Of a DNA stretch of 64,000 bases, positions 15,316-59,735 are shown one piece after another. The notes under the pieces were generated by a model, which was not told the origin of the DNA, did no database searches, and saw nothing but the letters and a program-made list of their open reading frames with translations. The first letter of the stretch is position 1. The number at the start of each line of letters is the position of its first letter. Source of the DNA: an uncultured Candidatus Saccharibacteria bacterium (GTDB lineage: Bacteria > Patescibacteriota > Doudnabacteria > UBA920); contig CAZDEP010000001.1 of assembly GCA_964504715.1 (NCBI GenBank), positions 16,830-80,829 of the forward strand. The letters are read 5' to 3'. A program made the position numbers and the translations under genes.

Positions 15316-15325
15316 TTTAAAATTT

Positions 15326-15336
15326 TGTGGTATAAT
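15326..15336 (+). promoter_or_regulatory. Extended -10 TGTGGTATAAT upstream of the beta-propeller gene
   Basis: Exact tgtggtataat about 50 nt upstream of the ATG at 15390. Confidence 0.45.
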
Positions 15337-15389
15337 AAATTAACAGATTAAGCCTGAATATTGAAAATTAAAATAAATATTTAACAGGG

Positions 15390-16598: not shown

Positions 16599-16675
16599 GT
16601 GTCCTTTTTGGGCATTTAGGTTTTTGAAAGTCTTAAATTTCTAATTAGCCTAATTTCTAATATCTAAATAGGCCT

Positions 16676-16695
16676 CAATTCCCAATTGGGAATTG
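16676..16695. promoter_or_regulatory. Perfect 18-bp palindrome AATTCCCAATTGGGAATT upstream of radA (candidate operator)
   Basis: caattcccaattgggaattg lies about 50 bp upstream of the radA start, inside an AT-rich region that also has CTAATTTCTAA repeats. Confidence 0.35.
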
Positions 16696-16744
16696 GACAT
16701 TATTTAGGTCAATTAGTACAATTAGAGTAATTAGGAATTTTTTA

Positions 16745-22620: not shown

Positions 22621-22651
22621 GAAAAGCTAGAATCAAGAATCCAAAATCAAA

Positions 22652-24721
22652 TCATTCCAGGTGGATGGTTTGGTTTTGGATTTCTTTTTTTAGTTCAGGG
22701 TAATTATTTAGGCCGGGGTCTTTTTCGAGTAAGGTTTTTGCTTCAGAGCGGGCGGCGGGGATTAGACTAAAGTAGGAGGGGTCAAAATATTTAAAGTTCC
22801 ATCCCGATTGGCTGGATCCAAAAAGTTCGCCAAAGCCGCGGAGTTTTAAGTCGAGTTCGGCAAGCTCAAAGCCGTCCTGGGTTTTTTCAAAGGCTTTAAG
22901 GCGTTTGGTGATATCACTATCGTCCGCGGTTTGGTCCAAGCGGGGCGGGGAAATAAAAAGCAGGCAATAGGACTGGTGGCTGGCCCTGCCTACGCGTCCG
23001 CGGAATTGGTGGAGCTGGGCCAGGCCAAAACGCTCCGCGCCTTCTATTATCATAACGCTGGCATTGGGTACGTCCACGCCCACTTCCACTACGGAAGTGG
23101 AAACCAGAATTTGGATGCGGTTATTTAAAAAAGCGTCCATAACCTGTTCTTTTTCTTCGGCCTTAAGGCGCCCGTGAAGGAGCCCTATTTGGAAGGCGGG
23201 GAAGGCCTTTTTTAAAAGTTCGACTTCGGTTTTGGCCGCCTTAATCCCCAGCCGGTCGTTTTCCTCAATTAGCGGGGTAATTACAAATGCCTGCCTTCCC
23301 GCTTGGATTTGGGTGCGTATGAACGAATAAGCATCCGGTCTTTTGTCGGGGGGCGTGAGTTTGGTAATAATTGGCTTCCTGTCAGCCGGCTTGGTTTTTA
23401 TTTGGGAGATATCCAATTCGCCATAAACCGCCAGCTGCAGGGTGCGGGGGATGGGTGTGGCCGAAAGCGAAAGCAGGTGCGGCACCGTGGGTTTATTAAG
23501 CAGCATGGCAGAGCGCTGCTTTACGCCAAAGCGGTGCTGTTCGTCTATTATGACCAAGGCCAGGCTGCCAAATTCCACTTTATTTTGCAAAAGGGCGTGG
23601 GTGCCAATGAAAATGCCGGGCGCGCCGGTTTTAATTAATTTATGCAGGTCGGCTTTTTTAAGTTCCTCATTGGCAACTTGCGCATAGCTGTGGGTGAGCA
23701 GGGCGAGTTTAAAATTTGCAAGGTGGGGCTTTAAGAATTTTTTTGCGGTTTCAAAATGTTGTCGCGCTAAAATTTCCGTAGGCGCTAGGAAAGCGACCTG
23801 CTTTTTGGCACGGGCAGTTTGCAGGGCGGCAATTAAAGCCACCAAAGTTTTGCCCGAGCCGACATCACCTTCCAAAAGGCGGTTCATGGGGGCAGGCTTT
23901 TCCAAGTCCTGCAAAATATCCCAGGCGGACTTTTTTTGTTCGGGCGTAAGCGCAAAAGGCAGGCTGTCGACAAAATTTTTAACCAGCTCACGGTCAAATT
24001 TTACCGCGTGAGCCTTTTTTTTGCTTAATTCCTGCTTGTATTTTTGTACTGCCAGCTGGACCATAAAAATTTCCTCAAAAGACATGCGGGTCCTGGCGCT
24101 TTGTGCATCGGTTAAATTTTTTGGAAAGTGGGCCAGCTCCACGGTTTTTTCCAGCGCAGGCAGGGTATATGGCTTTAAAATTTCGGGAGGCAGCCTGTCT
24201 TTGAGTTCGTGCTTAAAGGGCAGGGCCTTGCTTATGAGGTTGCGCAGAGTTTTCGGGTATAAGCCGGAGGTTAAATGGTAAACAGGCAGCAAGCGCGAGG
24301 TATGCACTGGAAATTCGCCGGCTTTTTCGTAAAGCGGGTTTACAAATTGCAGACGCCCGTTATAAGTTTCCACCACGCCCGCAATAAAAATCTCATCGCC
24401 CACTTTTAAGCTTTTGGCCAGGTAGGCTTGGTTAAACCAAATGACTTTTATGTTGCCCGTATCGTCGGCTATGAGCGCTTCGGCCAGGCTTAGGCGCCCC
24501 CGAAAGGAAAAGCGGCTGCCAATGCTTTTTATTTTCCCGCCCACGCTTACATTTTCCCCGGCTTTTAGCTCTTTAATTTTTTTTACTTCGGAAAAGTCCA
24601 AATAGCGGTAAGGGAAATACAACAACAAATCCCGAACCGTATGAATTTCGAGTTTTTTTAAAGCCGCTAAAAGCGGCTTATTTAGACGGCCAAGTATTTC
24701 AATGGGGGAGTTTACATCCAT
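22652..24721 (-). CDS. recG: ATP-dependent DNA helicase RecG
   Basis: OB-fold wedge region, helicase motifs GDVGSGKT (I), DEQHRFG (II), and QxxGRVGR motif VI (HQFRGRVGR). Confidence 0.9.
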   Translation of the reverse strand: MDVNSPIEILGRLNKPLLAALKKLEIHTVRDLLLYFPYRYLDFSEVKKIKELKAGENVSVGGKIKSIGSRFSFRGRLSLAEALIADDTGNIKVIWFNQAYLAKSLKVGDEIFIAGVVETYNGRLQFVNPLYEKAGEFPVHTSRLLPVYHLTSGLYPKTLRNLISKALPFKHELKDRLPPEILKPYTLPALEKTVELAHFPKNLTDAQSARTRMSFEEIFMVQLAVQKYKQELSKKKAHAVKFDRELVKNFVDSLPFALTPEQKKSAWDILQDLEKPAPMNRLLEGDVGSGKTLVALIAALQTARAKKQVAFLAPTEILARQHFETAKKFLKPHLANFKLALLTHSYAQVANEELKKADLHKLIKTGAPGIFIGTHALLQNKVEFGSLALVIIDEQHRFGVKQRSAMLLNKPTVPHLLSLSATPIPRTLQLAVYGELDISQIKTKPADRKPIITKLTPPDKRPDAYSFIRTQIQAGRQAFVITPLIEENDRLGIKAAKTEVELLKKAFPAFQIGLLHGRLKAEEKEQVMDAFLNNRIQILVSTSVVEVGVDVPNASVMIIEGAERFGLAQLHQFRGRVGRASHQSYCLLFISPPRLDQTADDSDITKRLKAFEKTQDGFELAELDLKLRGFGELFGSSQSGWNFKYFDPSYFSLIPAARSEAKTLLEKDPGLNNYPELKKEIQNQTIHLE

Positions 24722-24828: not shown

Positions 24829-25350
24829 TCAGAATTTAAACCAGTGCATTACCCTTTGCGCCGTGGTCGGTTCGGTGTCCGGATGCTCAATTAGGAAAGA
24901 AAGAAGAAAATCCCTGACTTCATCCGGGTCTTGCTCGCTGAGCTCAATGACCATTACCTTATTCAAATAATTGGAGGTTTCAAAGTTTAAAGTCTTGTGA
25001 TGTTCCTTATCCACCACCCAGAAGTGCTTAATTTGCTTATAGGGCATATGCACAGTGCCATGGTTTATGCCTTTGGAATTGAGTTCAACAGTTACCGTTC
25101 TGGGCGTTTGCCGGGAAAAGTAAATAATCAGCAGGGTAATAAGCCCTACGGTAACGGAGGCAAAAATATCTTTTTGGATAAGTACAAAAAAGCCAATGAA
25201 CAATATGGCAATGGAAATAAGCGTAACGTACCACCCGGCTGATTTTTCGTAAAATTTGAATTCCGGCGCTTCCCAGGAAATGTTTATTTTACTTTTTGCC
25301 ATAATTTTAAGAGTTGATAATTTTTGGCGGAAGCGAGAGGATTCGGTCAC
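24829..25350 (-). CDS. Hypothetical membrane protein (2 TM) with a C-terminal soluble domain
   Basis: 173-aa ORF with hydrophobic segment YVTLISIAILFIGFFVLI. Confidence 0.35.
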   Translation of the reverse strand: MTESSRFRQKLSTLKIMAKSKINISWEAPEFKFYEKSAGWYVTLISIAILFIGFFVLIQKDIFASVTVGLITLLIIYFSRQTPRTVTVELNSKGINHGTVHMPYKQIKHFWVVDKEHHKTLNFETSNYLNKVMVIELSEQDPDEVRDFLLSFLIEHPDTEPTTAQRVMHWFKF

Positions 25351-25541
25351 TTCACGCTGCGCTTATTTCTCCGCCTGCCCATGGATCGAATCGCGCTACG
25401 CTACAGCGACCCCTGCCGCTATTTGTTGCTCCTAACCCCGCAACAAATTTTTTGCTTCGCAAAAACCGCTTTTTTCAAATCCTTCTTAATTTGTTCGCCA
25501 ATGGCTTAAGAAGGGATGGAATTCAGTTTATCTTTTCTAAC
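25346..25541 (+). mobile_element. About 195-bp tRNA-3'-end-associated element, copy 1, bounded by a 21-bp direct duplication of the tRNA-Ser(UGA) 3' end
   Basis: tggcggaagcgagaggattcg occurs at 25325-25345 and again as the genuine tRNA 3' end at 25542-25562. The core gtcacttcacgctgcgc...gcgctacgctacagcgacccctgccgct is shared, in inverted orientation, with copy 2 at 27843-28035. Confidence 0.6.
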
Positions 25542-25631
25542 TGGCGGAAGCGAGAGGATTCGAACCTCTGAAGGGTTTTAGCCCTTAGCGGTTTTCAAGA
25601 CCGCCCCGTTCGACCGCTCCGGCACGCTTCC
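25542..25631 (-). tRNA. tRNA-Ser (anticodon UGA)
   Basis: Reverse complement GGAAGCGTGCCGGAGCGGTCGAACGGGGCGGTCTTGAAAACCGCTAAGGGCTAAAACCCTTCAGAGGTTCGAATCCTCTCGCTTCCGCCA; long variable arm, anticodon loop CTTGAAA. Confidence 0.8.
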
Positions 25632-25849: not shown

Positions 25850-27013
25850 TCATTCAACGTACTGGGGGAGAGGGTCTTCTATAATAAACCCGCCTACCGC
25901 ATTGTTCGGATTGATTTTGGACTCTTCCTGCAATTCGTCGCGGATTTTAGGCGCAGGTTTTAGCAGGCTTTCCGGGCTGGTGGTGGTGTCCGGCTGTTTT
26001 TGGGATTCCGGCGAGCTGGTGGCCGCAGGGGCGGGGTCTTCAGTTCGGCCCAGGGCAGAAAGTTTTAAGGCAATAATTTTTGTACCGGATTTTTTGCCTG
26101 TGACCGCGACTTTTTCCCCGATTTTAAGTTCGGAGAAATTTAAATTTTTGCCGTCCGCGGAAATAAGGGTAGTGGAGGCATTTACGGCAAAGGAGGTTTT
26201 TTCCACCTGCAGGCCGTCTTTTTCAATTTTAGTGATTTGTCCGGAGAGGGTTACGCTGTCTTCCGACCCCAAAAGGTTTGTAAGGGCCGCTTCTGCCGTG
26301 GTAATTTCCACGGATTGCTTAATTTCGGAAATCCGGGTTTGATTTTTTAAACTAAGGGCAATTACATCTTTGGTGTCGTCGTTTTGGGCAATGTCAGAAA
26401 TCAGAGCCTGTTCTTTTTTGCCCACTTCTTCCAGGGAGTTTAAAAGTTCAGGGTTAGCCGAGGTTATGGATTCGCGCGAGAGGGTATTTACTTCTTCTGC
26501 CGCCTGCTGTGTAGCTTTCGAAACTTCCTTAATTGCAGCGAGCTTTTGGCCGGTATTGTCGCCCGGCAGGCTGGCCAGTTTTTGCGCTTCTGCTACTCTT
26601 TTTTTTGCAATTTGCACCTGCAAATAAGCCCTCTGGATTTTGTCGCCGGCGAATTTTACCCTAAATTGCTCCGCGCTTTTTTTAATTTCAAAAAGTTTTT
26701 GCCCGGGCAAACTGTTGGCCGTGGCGTAGGTAAACCCTCCAACCAAAAGCAAGCCTGCACAAATTGCCACAGCAGGAATAAAATTAAAGACTTTCAAAAA
26801 TTCCAAGTTCCAGCCAAAACCCACCGAGGGCTTTTGGGCTAGGTATTTGCGGCGGCTGGCGGCAAGGGCGGGGGTAGCTGCCCGAATAGAGCTTAAGCTT
26901 TTTAAAATTTGCGCCCACTCTTTTTCCTCTGAAGACATGCTCAAAATCCCGAGCTCATTTAAGGAGCCTTTTTTTACAGCGGTGATTAATTGTTCGAGTT
27001 GTCTGTCGTCCAT
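25850..27013 (-). CDS. Single-pass membrane protein, putative anti-sigma factor partner of the adjacent ECF sigma (cytoplasmic N-terminus, one TM, extracytoplasmic low-complexity domain)
   Basis: Translationally coupled to the sigma gene (start overlaps its stop at 27013). TM helix FIPAVAICAGLLLVGGFTYA. Confidence 0.45.
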   Translation of the reverse strand: MDDRQLEQLITAVKKGSLNELGILSMSSEEKEWAQILKSLSSIRAATPALAASRRKYLAQKPSVGFGWNLEFLKVFNFIPAVAICAGLLLVGGFTYATANSLPGQKLFEIKKSAEQFRVKFAGDKIQRAYLQVQIAKKRVAEAQKLASLPGDNTGQKLAAIKEVSKATQQAAEEVNTLSRESITSANPELLNSLEEVGKKEQALISDIAQNDDTKDVIALSLKNQTRISEIKQSVEITTAEAALTNLLGSEDSVTLSGQITKIEKDGLQVEKTSFAVNASTTLISADGKNLNFSELKIGEKVAVTGKKSGTKIIALKLSALGRTEDPAPAATSSPESQKQPDTTTSPESLLKPAPKIRDELQEESKINPNNAVGGFIIEDPLPQYVE

Positions 27014-27603
27014 TAGGGTTTTTCCTGGAGTTTTTTAAGCTCCAAAAGCTTGGTTATGGCGCGGTGCTGTATGACTCGTATGGCGCCTTCGGTCTTATTT
27101 AATATTACGGCGATTTCGGCGTTGCTTAAATCTTCCAAAAATTTTAATTTAATTACCGCCTGTTGTTCCGCGCCCAGTTCTTTTAAAAGTTTAAGCAATG
27201 CCGCCTGCTCGTATTCGAGCTGCAAAAGGTCCACGGTGTTAGTCTCGTATTCCAGGGTATTTTCCACATCTTCCAAACTTACCGTAAGCTTTTTTTCCCG
27301 GTAATAATCTATAACCGTGTTGCGGGCAATGCGGTAAATCCAGCCAAGGAAAACTTCTGGTTTGTCCAGGGTGCCTAACTTGCCGAAAGCTTTTATAAAG
27401 ACTTCCTCGGCCAAATCTTCCGCTACTTCCTTGTGGCCTACGCGGTAAAAAATGAACCTGTAGATTTTTTGGAAGAGCAGGTCATACACCTGGCCAAAAG
27501 CCGCCTCGCTCCCACCTTGGGCTTTTTTCACCAATTGGGCGAGTTCCTGGGCATTTTCATCAAATTCCATTGTACTAATATTTAAGACGTCAGAGTTGGG
27601 CAT
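27013..27603 (-). CDS. ECF-type RNA polymerase sigma-70 family factor
   Basis: Region 2 reads QGGSEAAFGQVYDLLFQKIYRFIFYRV...AEDLAEEVFIKAF. Region 4 HTH reads LSNAEIAVILNKTEGAIRVIQHRAITKL. Confidence 0.8.
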   Translation of the reverse strand: MPNSDVLNISTMEFDENAQELAQLVKKAQGGSEAAFGQVYDLLFQKIYRFIFYRVGHKEVAEDLAEEVFIKAFGKLGTLDKPEVFLGWIYRIARNTVIDYYREKKLTVSLEDVENTLEYETNTVDLLQLEYEQAALLKLLKELGAEQQAVIKLKFLEDLSNAEIAVILNKTEGAIRVIQHRAITKLLELKKLQEKP

Positions 27604-27748: not shown

Positions 27749-27842
<94 letters not shown>

Positions 27843-28035
27843 TTGGCAATCAAATAACCCGATCAGTTGTATGACTGCCAATAGCTAACAAAGGGATTCG
27901 AAAAGAGCGGTCCCCGGGCAAAGCCCGGGGAATTGAAAGCGAGCAAGCGCAGCTTTCAATAGCGGCAGGGGTCGCTGTAGTGTAGCGCGATTCTATCCGC
28001 CGCCAGGCGGATAGATGAGCGCAGCGTGAAGTGAC
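27843..28035 (-). mobile_element. About 190-bp tRNA-3'-end-associated element, copy 2 (inverted relative to copy 1), bounded by a 28-bp direct duplication of the tRNA-Ser(GCU) 3' end
   Basis: cgaatcccaccctctccgccattggcaa occurs at 27822-27849 (tRNA 3' end plus 7 nt) and again at 28036-28063. The core atagcggcaggggtcgctgtagtgtagcgcgattc...gagcgcagcgtgaagtgac is the reverse complement of the copy 1 core. Confidence 0.6.
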
Positions 28036-28168
28036 CGAATCCCACCCTCTCCGCCATTGGCAAACACGCAACTTTCAGGTTTCGTGGTTGCCAATGGGAC
28101 GCAAGCAGGATTCGAAAAAAACGTTTTTGCTTGGGAAGCACGATTAATCAAGGGCAGGGTTTTATAAA

Positions 28169-32969: not shown

Positions 32970-33910
32970 AGGTTCATTTCCCTTAATCTATTTATTCTTT
33001 CTTCAATTGGCGGATGGGTGTTAAACATTTTGGCAAACCAGCTTCTGCCGGAGGGGGAGGCCGCCCTGAGTGCATCGGAAGGGCCTGCGTCTTCGTGAAA
33101 AGGATTCGCTATATAAAGGTGGGCGGTGGCTTTGTTGGCAGCTTCCAGCGGTTCGGTGTCGGCGCTGATTTTTTCCAAAGCCCTGGCCAGGCCTTCCGGG
33201 TAGCGGGTTAAGAGCGCGCCCGAGGCATCGGCCAGAAATTCCCGTTTTCGGGAAACCGCAAGTTTAATGAGCGTGGCAATAATAGGCGAAAGAATGGCAA
33301 GAGCTATGCCGGCCACAAGCAAAACGGCTTGGAGTTGCCCGCCGCCTTCGCTGTTGCGGCTCCGGCGCCGGCCGCCCCAAAAAGTCGCCCTAAGCATCCA
33401 GTCCGCAAGCAGGGTTACTACTCCCACCAACACCACCACCAAAGTCATTACGCGAATATCATAGTTTCCAATGTGCGAAAGTTCGTGTGCCACCACGCCT
33501 TCGAGTTCCGTTTTTTCAAGTTTTTGCAATATTCCCGTGGTAAAACAGACAATGGCATGCTCCGGGTCCCGGCCCGTGGCAAAGGCGTTCGGGGCCGTAT
33601 CATCAATTACATAAATTTTTGGCGTGGGCAGGCCGGCGGCAATGCAAAGGTTTTCCACCAAGCGGTAGAGTTCGGGGTTACTCTGCCTGTCTACCTCTTT
33701 GGCCTGCGACAAAGCCAGGGTAATTGAATCGCTAAAATAATAAGAAATGAATGAGCTTAAAAACGAAAAGCCAACGGCAAAATACAGAATTTGCGGGGAA
33801 TTGTAGGCTTGGGAAAAAACAAAACCCAAAAGCGAAATTACGATCAAAAAGCTGAATATTAAAATCCAGCTTTCGGTTTTGTTTTTGGATATGTGGTCGT
33901 AGGTTAGCAT
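32966..33910 (-). CDS. htpX: Zinc metalloprotease HtpX (M48 family)
   Basis: HExxH motif HELSHIGNYD, four TM helices, M48 topology. Confidence 0.85.
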   Translation of the reverse strand: MLTYDHISKNKTESWILIFSFLIVISLLGFVFSQAYNSPQILYFAVGFSFLSSFISYYFSDSITLALSQAKEVDRQSNPELYRLVENLCIAAGLPTPKIYVIDDTAPNAFATGRDPEHAIVCFTTGILQKLEKTELEGVVAHELSHIGNYDIRVMTLVVVLVGVVTLLADWMLRATFWGGRRRSRNSEGGGQLQAVLLVAGIALAILSPIIATLIKLAVSRKREFLADASGALLTRYPEGLARALEKISADTEPLEAANKATAHLYIANPFHEDAGPSDALRAASPSGRSWFAKMFNTHPPIEERINRLREMNL

Positions 33911-33982
33911 AAAACTTGAATTAAGAAGAATGAAGTAAGAATTATGATTCGATTCCTTACTTCTAAATACTTACTTCTTACT

Positions 33983-34531
33983 TCAAAATTTTACTTGTAC
34001 TGGTTGCCCCTCGGGGCCCTTTTCGTCAATGTCAAAAAAATCTCTGGCAGAAAAGCTGAACATTGAGGCAAAGAGGTTGGTGGGGAAGACCTGCAGCTGG
34101 GTGTTGTAGTCGCGCACCGTGCCGTTATAAAAGCGCCTCGACGCCTGGATTTTGTCTTCGGTGTCGGTTAAATCCCGCTGCATTTGCATAAAGTTGGTGT
34201 TGGACTTTAAATCCGGATACGCTTCCGCCACGGCAAACAAAGACTTTAAGGCGCCCGAAAGCATATTTTCATCTTTCAATTTTTCCTGCATGGTTCCTGC
34301 GCCCATGGCCATATTGCGGGCTTTGGTCACGTTTTCCAAAACCGAGGATTCCTGTTTGGCGTAACCTTTGACGGTTTCCACCAGGTTGGGGATGAGATCG
34401 TATCGCCGCTTTAGCTGGACTTCTATGTCGCTCCAGGCTTCATCCACGCGGTTTTTAGAGCGGATAAGCCCGTTGTAGACCATAACGGCGCCAACAACCA
34501 GCACGGCTAAAACTATCCAAAATATAAACAT
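33983..34531 (-). CDS. lemA: LemA family protein
   Basis: N-terminal TM helix plus EAWSDIEVQLKRRYDLIPNLVETVKGYAKQES...L..V..AR, the LemA consensus. Confidence 0.8.
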   Translation of the reverse strand: MFIFWIVLAVLVVGAVMVYNGLIRSKNRVDEAWSDIEVQLKRRYDLIPNLVETVKGYAKQESSVLENVTKARNMAMGAGTMQEKLKDENMLSGALKSLFAVAEAYPDLKSNTNFMQMQRDLTDTEDKIQASRRFYNGTVRDYNTQLQVFPTNLFASMFSFSARDFFDIDEKGPEGQPVQVKF

Positions 34532-34692
34532 AAATTTTTTATTTCCGATTAATGTCCTAATTTATTAGGATTATGTTTGAATTATAGCATATTTGGGGCA
34601 AAAAGTTTTGATATTTTGAAATTTATCCACTGACATTGGATGGGTTGCTTAATATTAAGTGGCCGATATAAAAATTTGGGATTTTAAAGAAT

Positions 34693-34703
34693 TTGTGGTA
34701 TAA
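34693..34703 (+). promoter_or_regulatory. Extended -10 TGTGGTATAAT upstream of secA
   Basis: Exact tgtggtataat; a hairpin ccctctcct-ccc-aaggagaggg overlaps the RBS at 34748-34772. Confidence 0.45.
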
Positions 34704-34778
34704 TTACCGCAGATTTGTGTGAGAAAGAAACCAAAAAACAATCTAACCCTCTCCTCCCAAGGAGAGGGGTAATAATGT

Positions 34779-37175
34779 ATGGGATTTACAGAAAATTTAC
34801 AACAAAAAGTAAACAATTTCCTCGATACCCGCTATATCCACCGCCTGGAAAATAAGATAGCGCTTATTGCCAAAGAGCGAGAGGAGCTAAAAAGCTGGAG
34901 TGAAAAAGAGCTGAGGCTGGCGGCTTTGGCATTTAAGGATGACCTAAAAAAAGGCAAGACTTTGGACGATATTTTGGTCCCGGCTTTTGCCGTAGCCAAT
35001 GAGGCCGCAAGGCGCGTACTTGGCCAGGTGCCCTTTGATGTGCAGATCTTGGGCGGCATAGTCATCCATATGGGCAAGGTTGCCGAAATGAAGGCCGGCG
35101 AGGGCAAAACCCTAACCGAAACCATGCCCGTATATTTAAACGCGCTTTTGGGCAGGGGCGTGCACATTGTGACGACCAACGATTATTTGGCCGAGCGGGA
35201 CTCTAAGTGGATGGGCAAACTTTACGACCTTTTGGGATTGAGCGTGGGGTATGTAACATCCGCCATGAAGTCCGAGCAAAGGCGCAAAGCGTATGCGTGC
35301 GACATAACTTACGTTACCAACCAGGAAATCGGCTTTGATTATTTGCGCGACAATTTGGTGTTTTCCAAAGTCGACAGGGTCTTAAGGCCCGAGCATCCTT
35401 TGCATTTTGGCATAGTGGATGAAATAGATTCCATATTAATAGATGAGTCGCGTACGCCGCTGATTATTGCCCAAGCTTTAAAAGAGGAGAGGGATTACTA
35501 TGACCAATTCAGCAAAATTGCAGCGGGACTAAAAGAAGGCGAAGATTTTGAAGTCGACTATAAGAATAAAAACGCCAAGATGACGGAAGGGGGCCTGGAC
35601 AGAGTCGAGAAAATTTTGGGTGCCCCGGTGTTTTCCGCCGACAATCCCATGGCGGCGTTTTACTTGGACGTGTCTTTAAGGGCGCGCGTGCTGTTTGAGA
35701 AAGACCGGGATTATATTATTTCTGCAGACGGAGTGGAAATTGTGGATGAATTCACCGGCCGTGTTTTGCCGGGGAGGAGGTTTAGCGACGGCGTGCACCA
35801 GGCGATTGAAGCCAAGGAAAAGGTGAAAGTCAAAGAGGCCGACCGGACCGCCGCCAGCATTACTTTCCAGAATTTTTTCCCGCTTTACGAAAAATTTTCG
35901 GGTATGTCGGGCACGGTTATGCGCGCCCGCGACGAGTTTAACCAGGTCTATAAACTTGATGTGGTTCAAATCCCCACCAACCGTCCCTTGGCGCGCATTG
36001 AGCATAATGACTTGTTTTTTAAAACGCAAAAAGGAAAGTTTTTGGGTTTAATGAAAAAAGTCCGGCACATTCACCAAAAGGGCCAGCCGCTTTTGGTAGG
36101 CGCGCGCAATGTGGAAACCGCCCACGCGGTGGCGGAAATGTTTGAAAACGAAGGGCTGCCGTTCCAACTTTTGACCGCCAGCGACCATAAAGCCGAGGCG
36201 GAAAAAATCGCCAAAGCGGGCGCGGAGGGTATGATAACCATTGCTACCAACATGGCAGGCCGCGGTACGGATATTATGCTGGGGGCTGGCGTTGAAAAGC
36301 TGGGCGGCCTGTTTGTAATTGGTACCGAACGCCATGAATCCCGGCGCATAGACGACCAGCTGGCCGGGCGCAGCGGCCGGCAGGGCGAAGCGGGCGAGTC
36401 CGAGTTCCTTATTTCCATGGAAGACGAAATAATGATGCTTTTTGGCAGCCAAAAAATAATTGATGCCATGGAAGAGTATGACCTGCCCGAAGACGAATAT
36501 ATTTCCGGCCCCTCTTTGGACAAAGCGTTCGCCCAGGCGCAGGATTTTATAGAAAGCAAAAATTATGACAGCCGGATTTACCTTTATAAGTACGACAGCG
36601 TAACCAATTACCAGCGTTTGGAAGTCTACAAACTGCGGGACGGTCTGCTGGAAAATCCGGAAGGTTTTAACAATTTTGCCGTGCAGGCGGTGGAAGAAAC
36701 GGTGGGGAGGATTTTTGCACTCGCCGATCCGGCCGCCGTTGCCCGGCGGTTAAAAGAAATTTTTGGCGTGGGTATTGAAAGCCAAAATTTGGCTTTCTTA
36801 CAAAAAGAGCCGGGGATGGGCGAGACTTTTAACGAACTGTTGAATCCTTTTTATAAGTCGCCAAAGGCAGAAGTTTTAAAACAGGCGGCGGCGCAAGCGG
36901 CTATGGAGGCGGGGAGTCGGCTGGAAAAGATTTTTTCCGATCCGGAAGTTTATAAGGCTTCCCAGGCGCTGGTTCTGGAAATTATCGACAATAACTGGAG
37001 CCGACATTTGGAGTTGGTGGAAATCCTTAAAGAAGAATCCGGATTGTTTTCTTACGCCTCGCAGGATCCGCTCATTGACTATATTTTGGAAAGCAAAAAG
37101 TTGTTTGAGCATATGGGAGATAGCATACAAGAGCAGTTTCTTCAAACGGTGTTTGGGCGTTTGTCGCGATCCTAG
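34779..37175 (+). CDS. secA: Preprotein translocase ATPase SecA (short form, ~800 aa)
   Basis: DEAD-motor motifs: MKAGEGKTL (Walker A), TNDYLAERD, IVDEIDSILIDE (Walker B), TNMAGRGTDI. Confidence 0.9.
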   Translation: MGFTENLQQKVNNFLDTRYIHRLENKIALIAKEREELKSWSEKELRLAALAFKDDLKKGKTLDDILVPAFAVANEAARRVLGQVPFDVQILGGIVIHMGKVAEMKAGEGKTLTETMPVYLNALLGRGVHIVTTNDYLAERDSKWMGKLYDLLGLSVGYVTSAMKSEQRRKAYACDITYVTNQEIGFDYLRDNLVFSKVDRVLRPEHPLHFGIVDEIDSILIDESRTPLIIAQALKEERDYYDQFSKIAAGLKEGEDFEVDYKNKNAKMTEGGLDRVEKILGAPVFSADNPMAAFYLDVSLRARVLFEKDRDYIISADGVEIVDEFTGRVLPGRRFSDGVHQAIEAKEKVKVKEADRTAASITFQNFFPLYEKFSGMSGTVMRARDEFNQVYKLDVVQIPTNRPLARIEHNDLFFKTQKGKFLGLMKKVRHIHQKGQPLLVGARNVETAHAVAEMFENEGLPFQLLTASDHKAEAEKIAKAGAEGMITIATNMAGRGTDIMLGAGVEKLGGLFVIGTERHESRRIDDQLAGRSGRQGEAGESEFLISMEDEIMMLFGSQKIIDAMEEYDLPEDEYISGPSLDKAFAQAQDFIESKNYDSRIYLYKYDSVTNYQRLEVYKLRDGLLENPEGFNNFAVQAVEETVGRIFALADPAAVARRLKEIFGVGIESQNLAFLQKEPGMGETFNELLNPFYKSPKAEVLKQAAAQAAMEAGSRLEKIFSDPEVYKASQALVLEIIDNNWSRHLELVEILKEESGLFSYASQDPLIDYILESKKLFEHMGDSIQEQFLQTVFGRLSRS

Positions 37176-37295
37176 TGCCGTTTCATTTTAAACCTGACGG
37201 CCAATATCCCTTAAATTAATTTATTTTAGAGGAGTTTGAAAATCTGACAATCGACATAATTAAAATGAAACGGTACTAAAATAATTTATTCCGAT

Positions 37296-37392
37296 ATACA
37301 GATGGGCAGATATTTCAGATAACTACAGATATTATTATAAATATTTTATTTACCATCTGTAGGTATCTGTATTATCAGATAATCAGTAAATC
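37296..37392. mobile_element. Cargo-less MITE-like copy (left TIR directly abutting right TIR) of the element that splits virB4
   Basis: acagatgggcagatatttcagataactacagat + spacer + ccatctgtaggtatctgtattatcagataatcagtaaatcgg. Each end is about 85% identical to the 9451/9868 TIRs. Confidence 0.6.
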
Positions 37393-37443
37393 GGCATACA
37401 TTAGTAATTGACCTAATTAGTTAAATTAGGCTATAATTTTTCC

Positions 37444-37725
37444 ATGCTTACACGTGAGGAAGTAATAAAACTTTCCCAGCTGGCAAGGATAGAACTTAGC
37501 GACACAGAGGTGGAAAAGTTCCAGAAGGACCTGTCCGCGGTTTTTGAGTATGTGGAAGAATTAAAACAGGTGAATGTGGAAGGCCTGGAGGAAGTTTCCC
37601 AGGTTACCGGGCTGGTAAATGTCCAGAGGGAAGACAAAGTTGTGGACCACGGCAACCGCGAGGAAATTTTTACCCAGGCGCCGGAAATGAAAGATGGGTA
37701 CTTTAAAGTGAAAGCAATTTTATAG
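37444..37725 (+). CDS. gatC: Asp/Glu-tRNA amidotransferase subunit C
   Basis: 93 aa. The pattern IT.EEV.KLA.LARIELSD.E...F..DL..V...VE.L is GatC-like. It sits immediately upstream of gatA. Confidence 0.8.
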   Translation: MLTREEVIKLSQLARIELSDTEVEKFQKDLSAVFEYVEELKQVNVEGLEEVSQVTGLVNVQREDKVVDHGNREEIFTQAPEMKDGYFKVKAIL

Positions 37726-37798
37726 CCGAGCGTTTAGGGCTAAGCGCTAAGGGCTAAGATTTCTTAGCGCTATACGCTTAGCCCTTAGCCCTGAAAAA

Positions 37799-39286
37799 AT
37801 GACTTTTGAATTTTTATCTCTAACTGACTTACGCAAGCTTTTAGACACCAAACAGGTTTCGTCTGTCGAACTGACGAAATATTTTTTGGAGCGCATAAAA
37901 AAGTATGACAAGGAACTCAATTCCTTCATTACCGTTTGCGAAGAGGAGGCCCTTAAGCAGGCCAAGGACGCTGATGATTTTATAAATAGTCCCGGAGAAA
38001 ATCCTTTTCTTTGCGGGATTCCGTATGCGGCCAAAGACCTGTTCTGCACCAACGGAATACGCACCACCGCAGCTTCCAAAATTTTAGATAACTACATACC
38101 GCCCTACGATTCGACCGTCATTGCCAAATTAAAAGAGCAAAAGGCCGTATTGGTCGGCAAAACCAATTTGGACCAGTTTGCACACGGGTCTTCGGGCGAA
38201 ACGTCCGCTTACGGCCCGACCAAAAACCCCTGGGATAAAACCCGCATGCCGGGCGGTTCTTCTTCGGGCTCGGCTTCCGCCGTTGCGGCGGGCCTGGTGC
38301 CATGGGCCACGGCCACAGAAACCGGCGGCAGCATCCGCCAGCCGGCATCCTTAACCGGGCTTTCCGGCTGGAAACCCACCTACGGCCGAGTAAGCCGCTA
38401 CGGCGTTGTGGCCATGGGTTCATCGCTCGATTCAATTGGCGCCATGGCGGGGAGCGTGGAGGAATTGGCCTATTTGGCAGAATTTATGTCGGGTCGAGAT
38501 GAAAAAGATTCCACCACAGGTCCTACTGAAGTTCCGCGTTATGCATCTTTGCTGTCAAAAGATATTAAGGGCCTGAAAGTTGGGATCCCGAAGGAATATT
38601 TTGTGGAAGGCATGGAGGCGGACGTAAAAGCGCGGGTGTTTGAAGCCATAAAAGAATTGGAAAAACTGGGCGCTAAACTTTACGACGTAAGTTTGCCCAA
38701 CACCAAATACGGTTCTTTGGTTTACGCCATAGTCTGTCCGTCCGAGGTCTCTTCCAATTTAATGCGCTACGACGGCATTCGTTTTGGTTATACATCGAAA
38801 GAAGCAAAAAATTTAATGGAAGTTTACGCCAAAAGCCGGGCGGAAGGTTTTGGCAATGAAGCCAAAAGGCGGATTATGACGGGCACGTACGTTCTTTCCG
38901 CCGGGTATTTTGACGCCTACTATAAAAAGGCGCAAAAAGTTAGAAGGCTGATAGTCAATGAATTCGAAGAAGTTTTTAAAACTGTGGATGTGCTGGCCTG
39001 CCCGTCTTCCCCAAACGTGGCTTCGACTTTAGGCAAGGCGGCGGAAAATCCGCTGCACGGCTACATTGCCGACCAGTTGAACATTCCGGGCAGCTTGGCC
39101 GGCTTGCCTGCGCTTTCGGTCCCGTGCGGTTTTGGCAAACCCAGCGAGGGTGCTTCGCCCTCCATGGACGGCCTGCCCGTGGGCTTACAAATTATTGGCC
39201 CGCAGTGGGGGGAGCAAACGGTATTTAACGTCGGCCACGCGTATCAAAGCGTGACGGATTGGCATAAGAAACACCCCTCAATTTAG
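37799..39286 (+). CDS. gatA: Asp/Glu-tRNA amidotransferase subunit A (amidase signature family)
   Basis: Amidase signature GGSSSGSASAVAAG with catalytic Ser-cisSer-Lys context (KDLFCT...GGSSGGS). Confidence 0.9.
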   Translation: MTFEFLSLTDLRKLLDTKQVSSVELTKYFLERIKKYDKELNSFITVCEEEALKQAKDADDFINSPGENPFLCGIPYAAKDLFCTNGIRTTAASKILDNYIPPYDSTVIAKLKEQKAVLVGKTNLDQFAHGSSGETSAYGPTKNPWDKTRMPGGSSSGSASAVAAGLVPWATATETGGSIRQPASLTGLSGWKPTYGRVSRYGVVAMGSSLDSIGAMAGSVEELAYLAEFMSGRDEKDSTTGPTEVPRYASLLSKDIKGLKVGIPKEYFVEGMEADVKARVFEAIKELEKLGAKLYDVSLPNTKYGSLVYAIVCPSEVSSNLMRYDGIRFGYTSKEAKNLMEVYAKSRAEGFGNEAKRRIMTGTYVLSAGYFDAYYKKAQKVRRLIVNEFEEVFKTVDVLACPSSPNVASTLGKAAENPLHGYIADQLNIPGSLAGLPALSVPCGFGKPSEGASPSMDGLPVGLQIIGPQWGEQTVFNVGHAYQSVTDWHKKHPSI

Positions 39287-39311: not shown

Positions 39312-39842
39312 ATGGACGAAATCAGAGAATTAATATTGAGAGGAGAAACCTTTCCTGCTAAGCAGGAAGTTGTTTTTGCTCCTGATTATATTTTAGATGT
39401 TGATCAGGAAACTGAGAAAGTCTTAAATCAATACCATAAAATTGGAGTAGACGCCACTAATTTAGTAGCATTAGTTGATGAACCTTTTACTCCAGAAGAG
39501 TATCGGGATGGAAAAAAGACATTGTTGTTAAAAGAAATTCCTGTAATTTCCCCAAAAGCAAGGATTCAGGAATTGGAAAATTATAGAAAGCGTTACAGGG
39601 GAATGTATGATGAAAGGAATGAAAGTTCGGGTATTTTCGTAAACATTGCTGGTACTCGGATTAAATCTCGAAAAGAAAACCCAAGAGAAGTTATGATTTT
39701 TGATTTTATTAGAACATCTAAAGGGGTGGTTGAGTGTCAGTGTTATAAATTGTTAGAAGAAGGACGTTTGAACAACGCCTTTTCTCATAGCATTAATTTT
39801 CCATATAATAGGGAATCGCTCCATGTTTATAATATGGATTAA
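39312..39842 (+). CDS. Hypothetical protein inserted between gatA and gatB
   Basis: 176-aa intact ORF with no motif; it interrupts the otherwise canonical gatCAB operon. Confidence 0.35.
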   Translation: MDEIRELILRGETFPAKQEVVFAPDYILDVDQETEKVLNQYHKIGVDATNLVALVDEPFTPEEYRDGKKTLLLKEIPVISPKARIQELENYRKRYRGMYDERNESSGIFVNIAGTRIKSRKENPREVMIFDFIRTSKGVVECQCYKLLEEGRLNNAFSHSINFPYNRESLHVYNMD

Positions 39843-44136: not shown

Positions 44137-44301
44137 AAAAAAGAAGCAGAAGGAAACACATAGGACCTATAATTTTTTTCCGGCGTGCGGGCTTGGGCGT
44201 TTTAAAGCCGCGCCGTGGATTTTCATCCGGGGGCGCTTTTTTATTTCTCGTTTTTTTGATTTGGTCGGATATTCGTCCAAAATTTTTTTCTTCATAGGTT
44301 T

Positions 44302-44312
44302 TATGGTATAAT
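44302..44312 (+). promoter_or_regulatory. Extended -10-like TATGGTATAAT upstream of the 44347 gene
   Basis: tatggtataat lies about 35 nt upstream of the ATG. Confidence 0.4.
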
Positions 44313-44346
44313 TATTGTATCTTAACTTTAATTTTTTGGAAAATAT

Positions 44347-45767: not shown

Positions 45768-45850
45768 TCTCTACGAACTACGAACTGAGTGCGAACTTAC
45801 GAACATCCCGTTTCGTATATTTCGTAAAAAGTTCGTAGTTCGTAGAAAAA
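45768..45850. repeat. About 83-bp structured repeat, copy A (outer 15-bp arms ctacgaactacgaac / gttcgtagttcgtag); it is the inverted partner of copy B
   Basis: tctctacgaactacgaac-tgagtgcgaacttacgaacatcccgtttcgtatatttcgtaaaaa-gttcgtagttcgtag. The reverse complement of the inner 45 bp is found exactly in copy B. Confidence 0.7.
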
Positions 45851-46911: not shown

Positions 46912-46985
46912 TCTCTACGAACTACGAACTTTTTTACGAAATATACGAAACGGGATGTTCGTAAGTTCGCACTCAGTTCGTAGTT
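46903..46985. repeat. About 83-bp structured repeat, copy B (inverted copy of 45768-45850)
   Basis: tctctacgaactacgaac-ttttttacgaaatatacgaaacgggatgttcgtaagttcgcactca-gttcgtagttcgtag. Confidence 0.7.
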
Positions 46986-46999
46986 CGTAGAAAATCCAT

Positions 47000-47557: not shown

Positions 47558-47637
47558 GCAAGTATAATGTATAAAGTATTATGTATTATGCAAATTTTGC
47601 TCATACGTAATACGTTATACTAAATACGTTTTACATT

Positions 47638-48852
47638 ATGATTTCCACTGTAATTATCTTTATTATCATTTTAGGCCTGCTCGTGTTTGTGCATGAGTTT
47701 GGGCATTTTTACGCGGCCAAAAAAAGCGGGATGCGAGTTTTGGAATTTGGATTTGGGTTCCCGCCAAGATTGTTGGGGGCCCAGAAAGTGAATGGAAAAT
47801 GGCGGATCGTTTGGGGCCATAAAGATCCAACGCAATCAACCTCTCCCCATCCCTCCACACATCTTGCGGAGGGAGCAAGCCAAGGTGCATCCGTTGTTTC
47901 CTCCCCCTTGAGGGGGGAGGAAGGTGGGGGTGATGATAGCACTATATATTCCATAAATGCCATTCCTCTTGGCGGGTTTGTAAAAATTTGGGGTGAAAAC
48001 AACGAATACGAAAACGATCCGCGCTCATTCATTAGCCGCCCGTTTTGGAACAGGTTTGCCACGCTTGTTGCGGGCGTGGTAATGAACGTGGTGTTGGCGT
48101 GGGTTTTACTGTCGGCCGGATTTATGGCGGGGATGCCCACAGCCGTGGAAAGTTTGGAAAGTTTGCCTAAAAGCGCCACGCTGCTAAACCCGCATGTGGG
48201 AGTGTTGGAAGTTTTGGAAAAAAGTCCTGCGCAAGCGGCGGGCCTTATGCCTGACGATTTAATTTTGGGGGTGGATGGGCAAAAGTTTTATACTGCTTCG
48301 GGATTCCAAGAATACATTCGGGCAAACAAAGGCAAAGTTTTTGAATTTAATATCCAAAGGGGCGGTGAAGAAAAAACCATCAGAGTGGAATCGTTGGCCA
48401 ACCCGGGAGAAAACGAGGGGCCCACGGGCATTGCCATAGCCGATGTGGGAAATTTAAGGTTTACGCCTTTTTATGCCGTCATATATGGCGCCAAGGCCAC
48501 GGGCATCCAGCTGTATGGCATTGGCAAGGGCTTGGTTGGGCTTTTTGGTTCCGGTATGGGGCTTAAAGCCCTGGGCGGGCCCGTTAAAATTGCACAGGTT
48601 ACGGGGCGCGCCGCGGAAATGGGCTTTATTTATCTTTTGCAGTTTACTTCCTTCCTTTCGCTAAACTTGGCAATTTTGAATATTTTGCCTTTTCCCGCGC
48701 TCGACGGCGGCAGGGTTTTGTTTTTGATAATTGAAAAAATCCGCGGGGTAAGGAATAATCCCAAAGTTGAGCAAGCCTTCAACGCCGCCGGCTTTGCGCT
48801 CCTAATTTTACTGATGATTTTAGTGACAATTAAAGATGTGAGAGGAATATAA
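47638..48852 (+). CDS. rseP: RIP metalloprotease RseP (site-2 protease, M50) with a ~50-aa insertion after the HExxH helix
   Basis: HEFGHF zinc motif, a PDZ domain (GVLEVLEKSPAQAAGLMPDDLILGVDGQ), and LNILPFPALDGG. The insertion AQKVNGKWRIVWGHKD...SSPLRGEEGGGDD precedes the conserved IPLGGFVKI. Confidence 0.85.
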   Translation: MISTVIIFIIILGLLVFVHEFGHFYAAKKSGMRVLEFGFGFPPRLLGAQKVNGKWRIVWGHKDPTQSTSPHPSTHLAEGASQGASVVSSPLRGEEGGGDDSTIYSINAIPLGGFVKIWGENNEYENDPRSFISRPFWNRFATLVAGVVMNVVLAWVLLSAGFMAGMPTAVESLESLPKSATLLNPHVGVLEVLEKSPAQAAGLMPDDLILGVDGQKFYTASGFQEYIRANKGKVFEFNIQRGGEEKTIRVESLANPGENEGPTGIAIADVGNLRFTPFYAVIYGAKATGIQLYGIGKGLVGLFGSGMGLKALGGPVKIAQVTGRAAEMGFIYLLQFTSFLSLNLAILNILPFPALDGGRVLFLIIEKIRGVRNNPKVEQAFNAAGFALLILLMILVTIKDVRGI

Positions 48853-49677: not shown

Positions 49678-50907
49678 ATGAGACAATCACATTATTTTTT
49701 AAAAACCAGCAAGACCCAGCCCGGGGAGGACCTTTCCACCAACGCGCGGCTTTTGGAGCAGGGCGGTTTTGTCCAAAAAGTTTTGGCGGGCGTTTATGAT
49801 TTTTTGCCTTTGGGCTTAAGGGTCCTTTCGCGCATTGAAAATATTGTCAGGCAGGAAATGGACAAAATCGGAAGCGAAATGTTTATGCCTGTTTTGCATC
49901 CGAAAGAAAATTGGCAGGCTACGGGCCGGTGGACGGGATTGGACGTGCTTTTTAAAATCAAATCCCAGCATGGCAGCGAATACGCCATGGGGCCTACCCA
50001 CGAAGAAATAGTCACGCCGGCGGCCCAAGCCGTAATATCTTCTTATAAAGATTTGCCTTTGGCTGTGTATCAGATCCAAACCAAATTCCGGGACGAACCT
50101 CGGGCAAAGTCCGGCCTTATGCGCGGCAGGGAATTTAGGATGAAAGACCTGTACAGCTTCCATGCGACCGCAGAGGATTTGGAAAACTATTATACCAACG
50201 TGGCCATGCCGGCTTACGAAAAAATATTTAAGCGGTTGGGCTTAAACGCTTTGCTGACGGAGGCTTCCGGCGGGACATTTTCCAAATTTTCCCACGAATA
50301 CCAGGTAGAAATTCCAAGCGGGGAAGACACGATTTACATATGCGAAAAATGCAATTTAGCCAAGAACAAAGAGATTTTTGAAGCAGGTGTAAAGTGTTCG
50401 GCCTGCGGCAGCGACAAATATAGGGAAACCAAAGCGTCGGAAGTGGGCAATATTTTTAAATTGCAGAATAAGTATTCTTCGGCTTTTAATTTGCAGTTTA
50501 CGGACAAGGACGGTTCCAAAAAGCCTGTGCTTATGGGCTGTTATGGGATAGGCACCAGCCGGCTTATGGGCGTAAGCGTGGAAAAATACCACGACGAAAA
50601 GGGCATAATTTGGCCCGAGGCCATTGCTCCTTTTAAGGTGCATCTTTTGGCGCTTAAAGGCGGGGAAAAAGCGGCCGATGAGTTGTATGAGGCTTTATTA
50701 AAGACGGGAATTGAAGTATTATATGACGACAGGGAAGCCAGCGCCGGGGTGAAGTTTGCGGATGCGGATTTAATAGGCATACCTTACAGGGTACTGGTCA
50801 GCGAAAAGACCCTCAAAGAGGAGAGTGTGGAGGTGAAAAAAAGGAGCGAGGAAAAAACAAAATTAGTTAAAATAAAAGATGTTTTACCAATTTTCCAGAA
50901 CAAATAA
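49678..50907 (+). CDS. proS: Prolyl-tRNA synthetase (short class II form lacking the bacterial editing domain)
   Basis: Class II motifs, an N-terminal pattern (FLKTSKTQPGEDLSTNARLLEQGGFVQKVLAGVYDFLPLGLRV) that reads as ProRS-like by recall, a zinc-binding insertion CEKCN...CSACG, and a C-terminal anticodon-binding domain. Confidence 0.8.
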   Translation: MRQSHYFLKTSKTQPGEDLSTNARLLEQGGFVQKVLAGVYDFLPLGLRVLSRIENIVRQEMDKIGSEMFMPVLHPKENWQATGRWTGLDVLFKIKSQHGSEYAMGPTHEEIVTPAAQAVISSYKDLPLAVYQIQTKFRDEPRAKSGLMRGREFRMKDLYSFHATAEDLENYYTNVAMPAYEKIFKRLGLNALLTEASGGTFSKFSHEYQVEIPSGEDTIYICEKCNLAKNKEIFEAGVKCSACGSDKYRETKASEVGNIFKLQNKYSSAFNLQFTDKDGSKKPVLMGCYGIGTSRLMGVSVEKYHDEKGIIWPEAIAPFKVHLLALKGGEKAADELYEALLKTGIEVLYDDREASAGVKFADADLIGIPYRVLVSEKTLKEESVEVKKRSEEKTKLVKIKDVLPIFQNK

Positions 50908-51033
50908 TTTTCAATTTGTAATTTTCAATTTTCAGTCAGTTTTCAATTTAAAATTTTTTTACTTTGGATCATTCATTGAAAATTAGAAAATAAAAATTGA
51001 AAATTTAGAGACCCTGGTCTTAAATTTTCAATT

Positions 51034-55500: not shown

Positions 55501-55689
55501 GTGGATAATATTGGCATAATTGAACAAAATTGACAAAAATAATAAAAATGACAAAAATAAAGATAATAGGATCCAAATTTCAAATATCAAATTACCAATT
55601 TCAAATAAATTTTTAAATGGCTTAATGTCAGAAATTGGAAATTTAAGAATTAAAATTTTTTTGGAATTTGATATTTGTAATTTGAAATT

Positions 55690-59628: not shown

Positions 59629-59735
59629 CAGATTAGATTATTATGCTGCTTAGGCATTAGTAAAAATAGTGTCCCTAATTCATAATTTATGCTTCTTGAA
59701 TTATGAGTTATGAATAAAATAATTAACATATAAAA

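Follow-up and report, generated by a model that had tools for sequence, protein, structure and literature searches.

What kind of element is the palindrome that lies between secA and gatC in an uncultured Candidatus Saccharibacteria bacterium (GTDB lineage Patescibacteriota; Doudnabacteria; UBA920), and how is it related to the gene that the same arms enclose elsewhere on the same contig? We analyzed a 64,000-nt stretch of this genome (assembly GCA_964504715.1, contig CAZDEP010000001.1, positions 16,830 to 80,829 of the forward strand), which we call the window and whose own numbering is used for all coordinates given without a locus number, together with related loci (L numbers). We conclude, with a probability of about one half, that the palindrome at 37286-37399 belongs to a family of palindromic "spacer cassettes" of Patescibacteria (Doudnabacteria-like and Saccharibacteria genomes) and is one of its gene-less members, whereas gene-bearing members carry a gene for a GxxExxY protein (PF13366) at their apex. 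To our knowledge, neither PF13366 nor PF05635, the 23S rRNA intervening-sequence protein (IVP) family that we find in the same architecture, has an assigned function; both are large families that cross phyla.

A gene-less palindrome in the secA-gatC spacer

The palindrome lies between the secA stop codon (37175) and the gatC promoter (sigma-70, 11/12 matches, 37408-37437). It is imperfect, 114 nt long, and consists of a 45-nt left arm at 37286-37330 on the plus strand with four ACAGAT-type words (TTATTCCGATATACAGATGGGCAGATATTTCAGATAACTACAGAT; arm profile E = 8.6e-12), a 24-nt A+T-rich apical loop at 37331-37354 on the plus strand (ATTATTATAAATATTTTATTTACC), and a 45-nt right arm at 37355-37399, also on the plus strand (ATCTGTAGGTATCTGTATTATCAGATAATCAGTAAATCGGCATAC; arm profile E = 5.1e-12), with weak pairing that extends outward to 37283-37402. 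In gene-bearing relatives, the position of the loop is taken by the GxxExxY open reading frame (ORF), and 13 gene-less relatives have loops that measure 5-47 nt. An earlier reading of the letters alone, the first-pass annotation, had placed the left-end and right-end sequences of a virB4-spacer element back to back at 37296-37392; both are there, within a palindrome that is slightly longer than it had drawn.

As RNA, 37286-37399 folds into a single long imperfect stem of -33.2 kcal/mol (z = -5.2; 38 Watson-Crick pairs in the minimum-free-energy fold), against a mean of -17.0 kcal/mol for shuffled sequences, none of which (0/200) folds as well as the real one. The core 17-mer of the arms, ATCTGTAGGTATCTGTA, occurs at five sites in the window at no more than 3 mismatches, where 0.02 are expected: both arms of this palindrome, both arms around the ORF at 9509-9904, and 59742-59758. 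The hairpin is real and represents a mobile palindrome in its gene-less form.

We considered two familiar identities and found neither. A terminator scan of 37100-37850 found no terminator-like site, and the A+T-rich, mismatched stem has neither the G+C-rich pairing nor the T run of an intrinsic terminator. A known RNA family was not found either: no Rfam 15 covariance model matches the hairpin even at E <= 1, and the whole window yields only three tRNA matches. The -10 box of the adjoining gatC promoter ends 6 nt before the ATG, which suggests a leaderless or near-leaderless mRNA, and an extended -10 motif, TTTGTGGTATAATTA, recurs upstream of several genes of the window (1949-1984, 15303-15338, 34671-34706, and 44279-44314).

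The same arms enclose a gene in the virB4 spacer

A gene-bearing copy with the same words lies 27 kb from the gene-less hairpin, in the spacer between the virB4-N and virB4-C genes of a type IV secretion system (T4SS) operon. Its left arm (9447-9491, plus strand) and right arm (9870-9914, plus strand) bracket an ORF of 131 aa (9509-9904, plus strand) that encodes a GxxExxY/PF13366 minimal PD-(D/E)XK nuclease; the gene sits at the apex of the palindrome, co-oriented with the operon, and the outer terminus of the right arm, ATCGGAATAA, ends 6 nt ahead of the TTG start of virB4-C. The two arms are 82% complementary over 45 nt, and the 468-nt unit (9447-9914) also folds with its arms paired. In alignments of 57, 53, and 50 nt with the arms of the gene-less copy, their identity is 75%, 79%, and 74%, respectively. 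The last ~12 codons of the ORF (HLQVSVKSKDL*) are the right arm in translation.

VirB4 is encoded here by two separate genes, a TraC-like N-terminal ORF of 228 aa (8745-9431) and an ATPase ORF of 614 aa (9921-11765), the latter starting with TTG in the window and with ATG in relatives. That the element had interrupted a single virB4 gene was considered and rejected: the best 120 homologues listed for the N-terminal protein are all stand-alone (218-286 aa, none of fused length), the two-gene state holds across the lineage, and syntenic operons in relatives show two adjacent genes. The homologues being stand-alone, the element therefore occupies a normal intergenic spacer of a T4SS-like operon.

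A third site gives weaker evidence. Upstream of rplK, a solo, degenerate array resembling a right arm (59742-59785, plus strand; TTCTGTAGGCATCTGTAGTATCCGTATTAGATTTTTGTAGATTT) runs straight into the rplK ATG at 59786. The right-end-like solo that the first-pass annotation had reported here does align along the whole right arm (59740-59790, words 1-4), but the match is partial and degenerate (arm profile E = 0.009), the rplK ATG stands in place of the outer ATCGGAATAA terminus, and no matching left arm lies upstream.

Distribution, anatomy, and word code of the family

We searched ~210 fetched loci (1.5 Mb) with an nhmmer arm profile, used in place of an earlier, cruder word-cluster scan that overlooked degenerate arms. 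Full-length 45-nt arms among these loci are confined to Patescibacteria contigs (labelled Doudnabacteria, Saccharibacteria, or "Patescibacteria group"). A 17-mer scan of a genome collection returned 119 matches, mostly chance singles (~500 expected in 596 Gb), and the matches that extend to full arms again come from Patescibacteria only. We identified 21 arm-bearing sites, of which 15 are inverted pairs and 6 are solo arms. Ten of the pairs are gene-less, with loops of 5-47 nt, and spread over 9 Patescibacteria contigs (window, L025, L033 (two), L048, L053, L068, L082, L089, L107, and L122); the other five enclose a GxxExxY ORF of the same clade (window, L017, L022, L098, and L214). The solo arms (window 59743, L060, L079, L094, and two in L116) lie just upstream of start codons. 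The first-pass annotation had allowed that the repeats could prove to be a common regulatory motif upstream of many genes, with no terminal-repeat geometry; the predominance of inverted pairs speaks against this overall, yet the six solo arms do have such a position. The 469-nt interval between the two L116 arms was examined as a possible decayed gene and rejected: the two are solo arms in a divergent promoter region, and no remnant of GxxExxY lies between them.

A full unit measures 467-471 nt and is composed of two 45-nt inverted arms that tightly enclose a GxxExxY gene of 125-135 aa at the apex. Each arm contains 4-5 words of the form CTAC-NN-AT, spaced 8-11 nt apart, or about one helical turn. 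The elements occupy their spacers from stop codon to start codon, with 2-10 nt between the outer terminus (ATCGGAATAA or a variant) and the start of the gene that reads away from the element, and 0-15 nt between the opposite end and the stop codon upstream. All gene-bearing copies (11/11) are co-oriented with the flanking genes (probability under random orientation ~5e-4), and this constant agreement with the host operon suggests that they are co-transcribed with it.

Within each GxxExxY copy, all words of both arms have a common core, and each gene copy has its own: ACAGAT, ACGGAT, ACGAAT, ACCAAT/ACTAAT, or ACTAAA. Protein searches found 77 homologues, all of them PF13366, and the C-terminal tails of close homologues and of many distant ones, down to ~50% aa identity, translate the right arm, either as HLQVSVKS or SVDRNK or with a stop (...HL*, ...NL*) inside ATCTGTAG. 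Four ACAGAT-type units, each from a different genome, show identities of 80-89% in the left arms, 89-96% in the right arms, and 69-80% in the coding interiors. Since an asymmetry between the arms (GATAAC in the left, GATACC in the right) is common to gene-bearing and gene-less copies, the two forms are probably homologous as whole units, and these comparisons indicate that gene and arms are inherited together as one unit.

Arms can also grow by perfect tandem repeat expansion of the words, as in L022 (464-595), where a 14-word left arm contains three exact 20-nt copies; in L136 (1-140), 17 copies of AATAGGGA stand beside an inverted partner upstream of gatC. In a metagenome-assembled genome of the Deltaproteobacteria (L045, 6050-6800), a canonical GxxExxY gene is bracketed by inverted arms of CGCAAAG words. 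The inverted-arm architecture is not confined to Patescibacteria and may be general for PF13366.

The GxxExxY protein resembles an active nuclease

The protein encoded at 9509-9904 scores above the curated cutoffs of TIGR04256 (48.9 bits vs 35) and of PF13366 (PDDEXK_3; 53.6 vs 22), which are its sole NCBIfam and Pfam matches; it is not an HUH Y1 transposase. Nine residues are invariant in an alignment of 45 homologues (E32, D64, E74, K76, Q88, Y92, L93, N105, and R115), and the catalytic D...E-x-K signature is intact (D64, E74, K76). The AlphaFold (AF2) model is a minimal alpha-beta PD-(D/E)XK domain (predicted local distance difference test score 90.5, predicted template-modeling score 0.83). 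On the basis of this model and the invariant D64, E74, and K76, the protein looks like an active nuclease. Foldseek against the PDB retrieves generic PD-(D/E)XK neighbors (lambda exonuclease, LHK-Exo, Cas4, MGME1, Hjc/Hje, and tRNA-splicing endonuclease), all of them weak (template-modeling score <= 0.5), so that the comparison agrees with an active nuclease but assigns neither a PD-(D/E)XK subfamily nor a substrate. A sequence search for a solved structure of the protein found none, and defense-system libraries gave only a marginal Cas4 match (E = 0.002).

Movement between operon spacers

Comparison of loci indicates that, on an evolutionary time scale, the family moves. Three non-orthologous spacers hold genes for ACAGAT-type proteins with 74-83% identity: virB4N|virB4C (window and P0124 contig), atpG|atpD (L214), and x|tpiA (L098). 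The virB4N|virB4C spacer itself is filled differently from one genome to another, with the ACAGAT-type unit in the window, an ACGAAT-type unit in L216 (45% aa identity to the window protein), a frameshifted copy in L131, a gene-less hairpin of another word family in L125, and no element in L128. The L131 copy is only 34% identical to that of L216, despite 81% identity between the VirB4N proteins of these two loci. Several units can share an operon, each with its own word core: L216 (2938-5584) has three GxxExxY genes in three consecutive spacers of the T4SS operon, and in L214 (1439-3746) two such genes lie in the operon for ATP synthase (atpG|X|atpD|X|atpC).

A mobile family with gene-bearing and gene-less members, as the first-pass annotation had proposed, is thus borne out by the common arms, by insertion polymorphism, and by relocation. 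Its remark that no transposase is evident also agrees with what we find: none is encoded in the window or in ~25 related loci, where the only recurrent genes inside the elements are PF13366 and PF05635. Relatives have genes of the latter family (23S_rRNA_IVP, an Avd-like four-helix bundle) at the apices of word palindromes that lie between operon genes, including those of the T4SS operon and gatA-gatB: L125 8942-9476 (AAGAAGTAAG arms), L131 9010-9462, and L222 4840-5308 (CAAAT-type arms). Gene-less and gene-bearing elements of one word family are close neighbors in three genomes, namely the window (ACAGAT), L125 (AAGAAGTAAG, IVP gene), and L222 (CAAAT, IVP gene).

Presence and constraint of the gene-less copy in relatives

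We compared the secA-gatC spacer with those of relatives whose SecA is 94.0% (L221), 92.1% (L218), and 87.8% (L222) identical to that of the window at the aa level. The hairpin is present at the same place in L221, the closest relative, and absent from L218 (79-nt spacer), L133, L134, and L138. The spacers of relatives without the hairpin are too diverged to give its exact boundaries. L222 and L223 have a hairpin of CAAAT-type words at that position, directly upstream of the same gatC promoter, and L141 has a hairpin of different words in the spacer.

Compared with L221, the hairpin and promoter of the window together show 98.1% identity, with 3 substitutions and 2 indels in an alignment of 157 positions, and the right arm is identical at 45/45 positions. 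The flanking genes are far less so, at 88.2% for secA and 85.1% for gatC (75% and 66% at third codon positions), and identity falls sharply on either side of the hairpin. The arms differ by two substitutions, neither of them compensated. With 98% identity in the hairpin against ~70% at flanking synonymous sites, something therefore reads the hairpin. In the next spacer, gatC-gatA, the hairpin at 37729-37792 is wholly replaced in L221 by one of another word family; replacement there and conservation here imply that hairpins turn over as units and that a resident copy can be strongly constrained.

Other word hairpins and neighboring features

At least 15 spacers of the window contain long, A+T-rich hairpins with other short words repeated quasi-periodically along their arms, among them ATTGACAAAAT, AATTTCAAAT, AAGAAGTAAG, CTACGAAC, TTAGGGCTAAG, and TTCTAATT; several of these families recur in the window and in relatives. 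Such hairpins are located at 8626-8739, 11772-11860, 16629-16733, 22627-22693, 33910-33999, 37729-37792 (the gatC-gatA hairpin), 45770-45846, 46931-46991, 47564-47639, 50906-51005, 55499-55689, 59661-59725, and 60224-60354. A 61-nt perfect inverted repeat (45770-45830 and 46931-46991) around a 351-aa BNR/sortilin-like gene corresponds to two copies of one CTACGAAC-word hairpin.

Next to the ACAGAT palindrome, and in contrast to it, a 102-bp insertion (37175-37276) has the arrangement of a classical TA-duplicating miniature inverted-repeat transposable element (MITE). It has 17-bp terminal inverted repeats (TIRs), GTGCCGTTTCATTTTAA...TTAAAATGAAACGGTAC, is flanked by TA on both sides (37173-37174 and 37277-37278), and is absent from L221, whose empty site reads ...CCTAGAATAAT. 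The left TA and the first G of the insertion form the secA stop codon. The insertion is present as a single copy in the window, and two independent short-read assemblies (L001 and L002) break inside it.

Other small genes also occur in operon spacers. A stand-alone gene for an 84-aa GIY-YIG nuclease domain (6689-6943) lies in a 540-nt spacer of the T4SS operon without matching inverted word arms. Between gatA and gatB, a 176-aa ORF without a Pfam match (39312-39842) follows AAGTAAG-type words; in L222-L224 this spacer contains a PF05635 gene, and in L221 it contains an ORF of 132 aa that is unrelated. Elsewhere in the window, a 99-nt inverted repeat (25325-25423 and 27958-28056, 85% complementary) and inverted tRNA genes (25545-25631, minus strand; 27751-27839, plus strand) bracket two minus-strand ORFs (25850-27013 and 27013-27603), an arrangement that may be an inverted duplication or an integrated segment.

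Comparison with known systems

The family has much in common with REPIN/RAYT systems: short palindromic doublets dispersed among intergenic spacers, one small gene with inverted copies of the repeat on its two sides, a repeat variant proper to each gene lineage, and long-term, partly vertical residence with constrained repeats. It differs from them in that the gene encodes a 131-aa PD-(D/E)XK nuclease (PF13366) rather than an HUH Y1 (IS200/IS605-like) transposase and occurs in many copies per genome (up to three in one operon), the arms are made of 4-5 phased words, the elements fill operon spacers from stop to start, and an unrelated four-helix-bundle gene can replace the nuclease.

A second parallel is with the ORF-bearing intervening sequences (IVSs) of 23S rRNA in Coxiella and Leptospira, which carry an S23p/PF05635 ORF and whose excision by RNase III has been shown (PMC4990558). 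In these IVSs, the termini are complementary and pair into a long stem that encloses a small ORF of ~120 aa or a short loop (PMC4990558). Short ORF-less versions, a sporadic distribution, and an unknown mode of spread are further likenesses, and PF05635 genes stand in exactly such an architecture in the relatives L125, L131, and L222. Unlike these IVSs, the elements described here lie between protein-coding genes (secA/gatC and virB4-N/virB4-C) and not in helices 9, 25, or 45 (no rRNA was found in the window), their ORF is PF13366, and excision by RNase III is for them only an inference.

Correia/NEMIS elements of Neisseria and ERIC elements of enterobacteria are palindromes of ~100-150 bp in transcribed spacers, co-transcribed and without a resident transposase; Correia elements are cut by RNase III and have fixed 26-bp TIRs and a TA duplication. 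The present palindromes match them in size, spacer location, lack of a resident transposase, and varying presence (between strains in Correia and ERIC) but show no visible duplication, have word-array arms and a coding full-length form, and share no sequence similarity with them. Homing-endonuclease genes, too, are small nuclease genes between conserved genes, co-oriented with them, with sporadic occupancy and reinvasion of the same site, but the nuclease here is a PD-(D/E)XK protein of an uncharacterized family within 45-nt inverted word arrays, and gene-less derivatives persist, whereas homing-endonuclease genes leave none behind.

The family is a combination of REPIN/RAYT, ORF-bearing rRNA IVS, and hairpin-MITE traits that lacks the defining feature of each, having no Y1 transposase, no location in rRNA, and no target-site duplication or fixed TIR. 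In our full-text searches, which covered open-access papers, we met no description of a palindrome-apex arrangement of PF13366 or PF05635 genes and no paper on the genomic architecture of either family.

Discussion

The reading we favor, at about even odds, is that of a selfish, operon-embedded cassette whose phased words are read sequence-specifically, with gene-less palindromes as its non-autonomous partners. We infer four parts of this reading, namely transcription through the element, processing of its stem, recognition of the words by the nuclease, and a copying mechanism. In the transcript, the arms would form a ~45-bp stem that isolates the insert, in parallel to the ORF-bearing 23S rRNA IVSs that RNase III excises. 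In the DNA, the phased words would be recognition sites of the element's own protein, most simply its nuclease, which would cut at or near a palindrome or a target spacer, and repair would then copy the unit in. The gene-less palindromes would be REPIN- or MITE-like relatives that keep the words and need a matching nuclease in trans, and selection would have preserved the copy at 37286-37399 where secA ends, a short way ahead of the gatC promoter.

Several observations weigh against the selfish cassette. A host function would account for the strong conservation of the resident copy no less well than a selfish function would. We see neither a target-site duplication nor a fixed target motif in the flanks of 10 copies, and the loops of the gene-less copies contain no ORF remnants. 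Only two copies and one partial copy of the ACAGAT family occur within 64 kb. The antisense strand of 37286-37399 folds slightly better than the sense strand; over 21 hairpins the sense strand is the stabler in 14 and G-U pairs number 54 vs 38, an asymmetry that strand composition confounds. Finally, the nuclease may be a passenger and not the driver, because nuclease-free IVP genes occupy the same architecture. The first-pass annotation had suggested that the GxxExxY protein could be the nuclease responsible for movement. That it is a nuclease is plausible, given its invariant catalytic residues and modeled PD-(D/E)XK fold, but the presence of non-enzymatic PF05635 proteins in the same architecture means that a nuclease cannot be the general explanation.

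The alternative that deserves most attention, which we nevertheless hold to be unlikely, makes the hairpin a cis-element of the host: a stabilizer of the secA 3' end, an RNase III processing site, an insulator before the gatC promoter, or a phased array to which a conserved host protein binds. Word hairpins would then be a general means of building spacers in these genomes, arising and turning over in place by tandem word expansion and inverted duplication, and GxxExxY and IVP genes would be separate selfish genes that landed in the apices of pre-existing palindromes. Much of the survey agrees with this: the many window spacers with hairpins of other words, the equal conservation of the hairpin and the adjacent promoter when the window is compared with L221, the growth of arms as perfect tandem repeats in L022 and L136, the outer termini close to start codons and the solo arms upstream of starts, the two unrelated gene families in one architecture, and the gene-less loops free of ORF remnants. 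Local birth is harder to reconcile with the recurrence of the same 45-nt arm, the same outer terminus (TTATTCCGAT...ATCGGAATAA), and the same GATAAC/GATACC asymmetry at unrelated loci of distant genomes, from Doudnabacteria to Saccharibacteria, which argues for the copying of units; gene and arms also co-vary as a unit across wide protein divergence. Orthologous spacers of close relatives lack the hairpin with no visible consequence, and the hairpin is neither an intrinsic terminator nor a match to any Rfam family.

A further alternative, toward which the first-pass annotation leaned in calling the palindrome a MITE with TIRs, is an internally deleted DNA transposon recognized by a transposase encoded elsewhere in the genome, with the GxxExxY gene as passenger cargo. 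A short (114 nt), non-coding sequence with inverted termini, more than one copy, and a presence that varies between relatives would fit, and bacterial MITEs without a known transposase do exist, Correia elements being an example. We nevertheless regard this as improbable: the search for target duplications that the annotation had recommended showed none in 10 copies, no transposase was found in the window or the ~25 related loci, and the partner with the same arms encodes PF13366, which is not a known transposase family. The arms, moreover, are not a fixed TIR but make up nearly the whole element, as arrays of 4-5 words at 8-11 nt; sister elements repeat this layout with a different word core, and the resident copy is under constraint (98% vs ~70%), as a dead MITE would not be. 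The true TA-flanked TIR insertion next door, at 37175-37276, looks quite different. Chance or low-complexity resemblance between spacers can be set aside as practically negligible. In its favor are the internal repetition of the arms and the A+T richness of this genome's spacers, but it is already refuted by five 17-mer matches against 0.02 expected, arms collinear at 74-82% over 45-57 nt, arm-profile E values of ~1e-12, the fold z of -5.2, and an orthologous copy in L221 that is 98% identical.

Returning to the selfish cassette, we tentatively extend it to a wider conjecture, itself rather unlikely, in which PF13366 and PF05635 genes are the coding cores of an unrecognized class of mobile element, a "palindrome-apex cassette." Such elements would spread between operon genes without a transposase, carry ~8-nt phased words with a re-programmable core of 2-3 nt (ACAGAT, ACGGAT, ACGAAT, ACCAAT, and others), spare the operon through an RNA-processed stem, and have gene-less partners; the 23S rRNA IVSs would be the special case that resides in rRNA. 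If the nuclease reads its own words, the result would be a compact and simply modular means of recognition, and it would offer a route to explaining the origin and movement of rRNA intervening sequences, a question open since 1990 (PMC4990558). In practice, hairpins of this kind break short-read assemblies of genomes of the Candidate Phyla Radiation (CPR) and inflate the tails of "hypothetical proteins." PF13366 and PF05635 could then be pictured as the cores of palindromic cassettes that colonize the operon spacers of minimal CPR genomes, accompanied by gene-less partners such as the one between secA and gatC.

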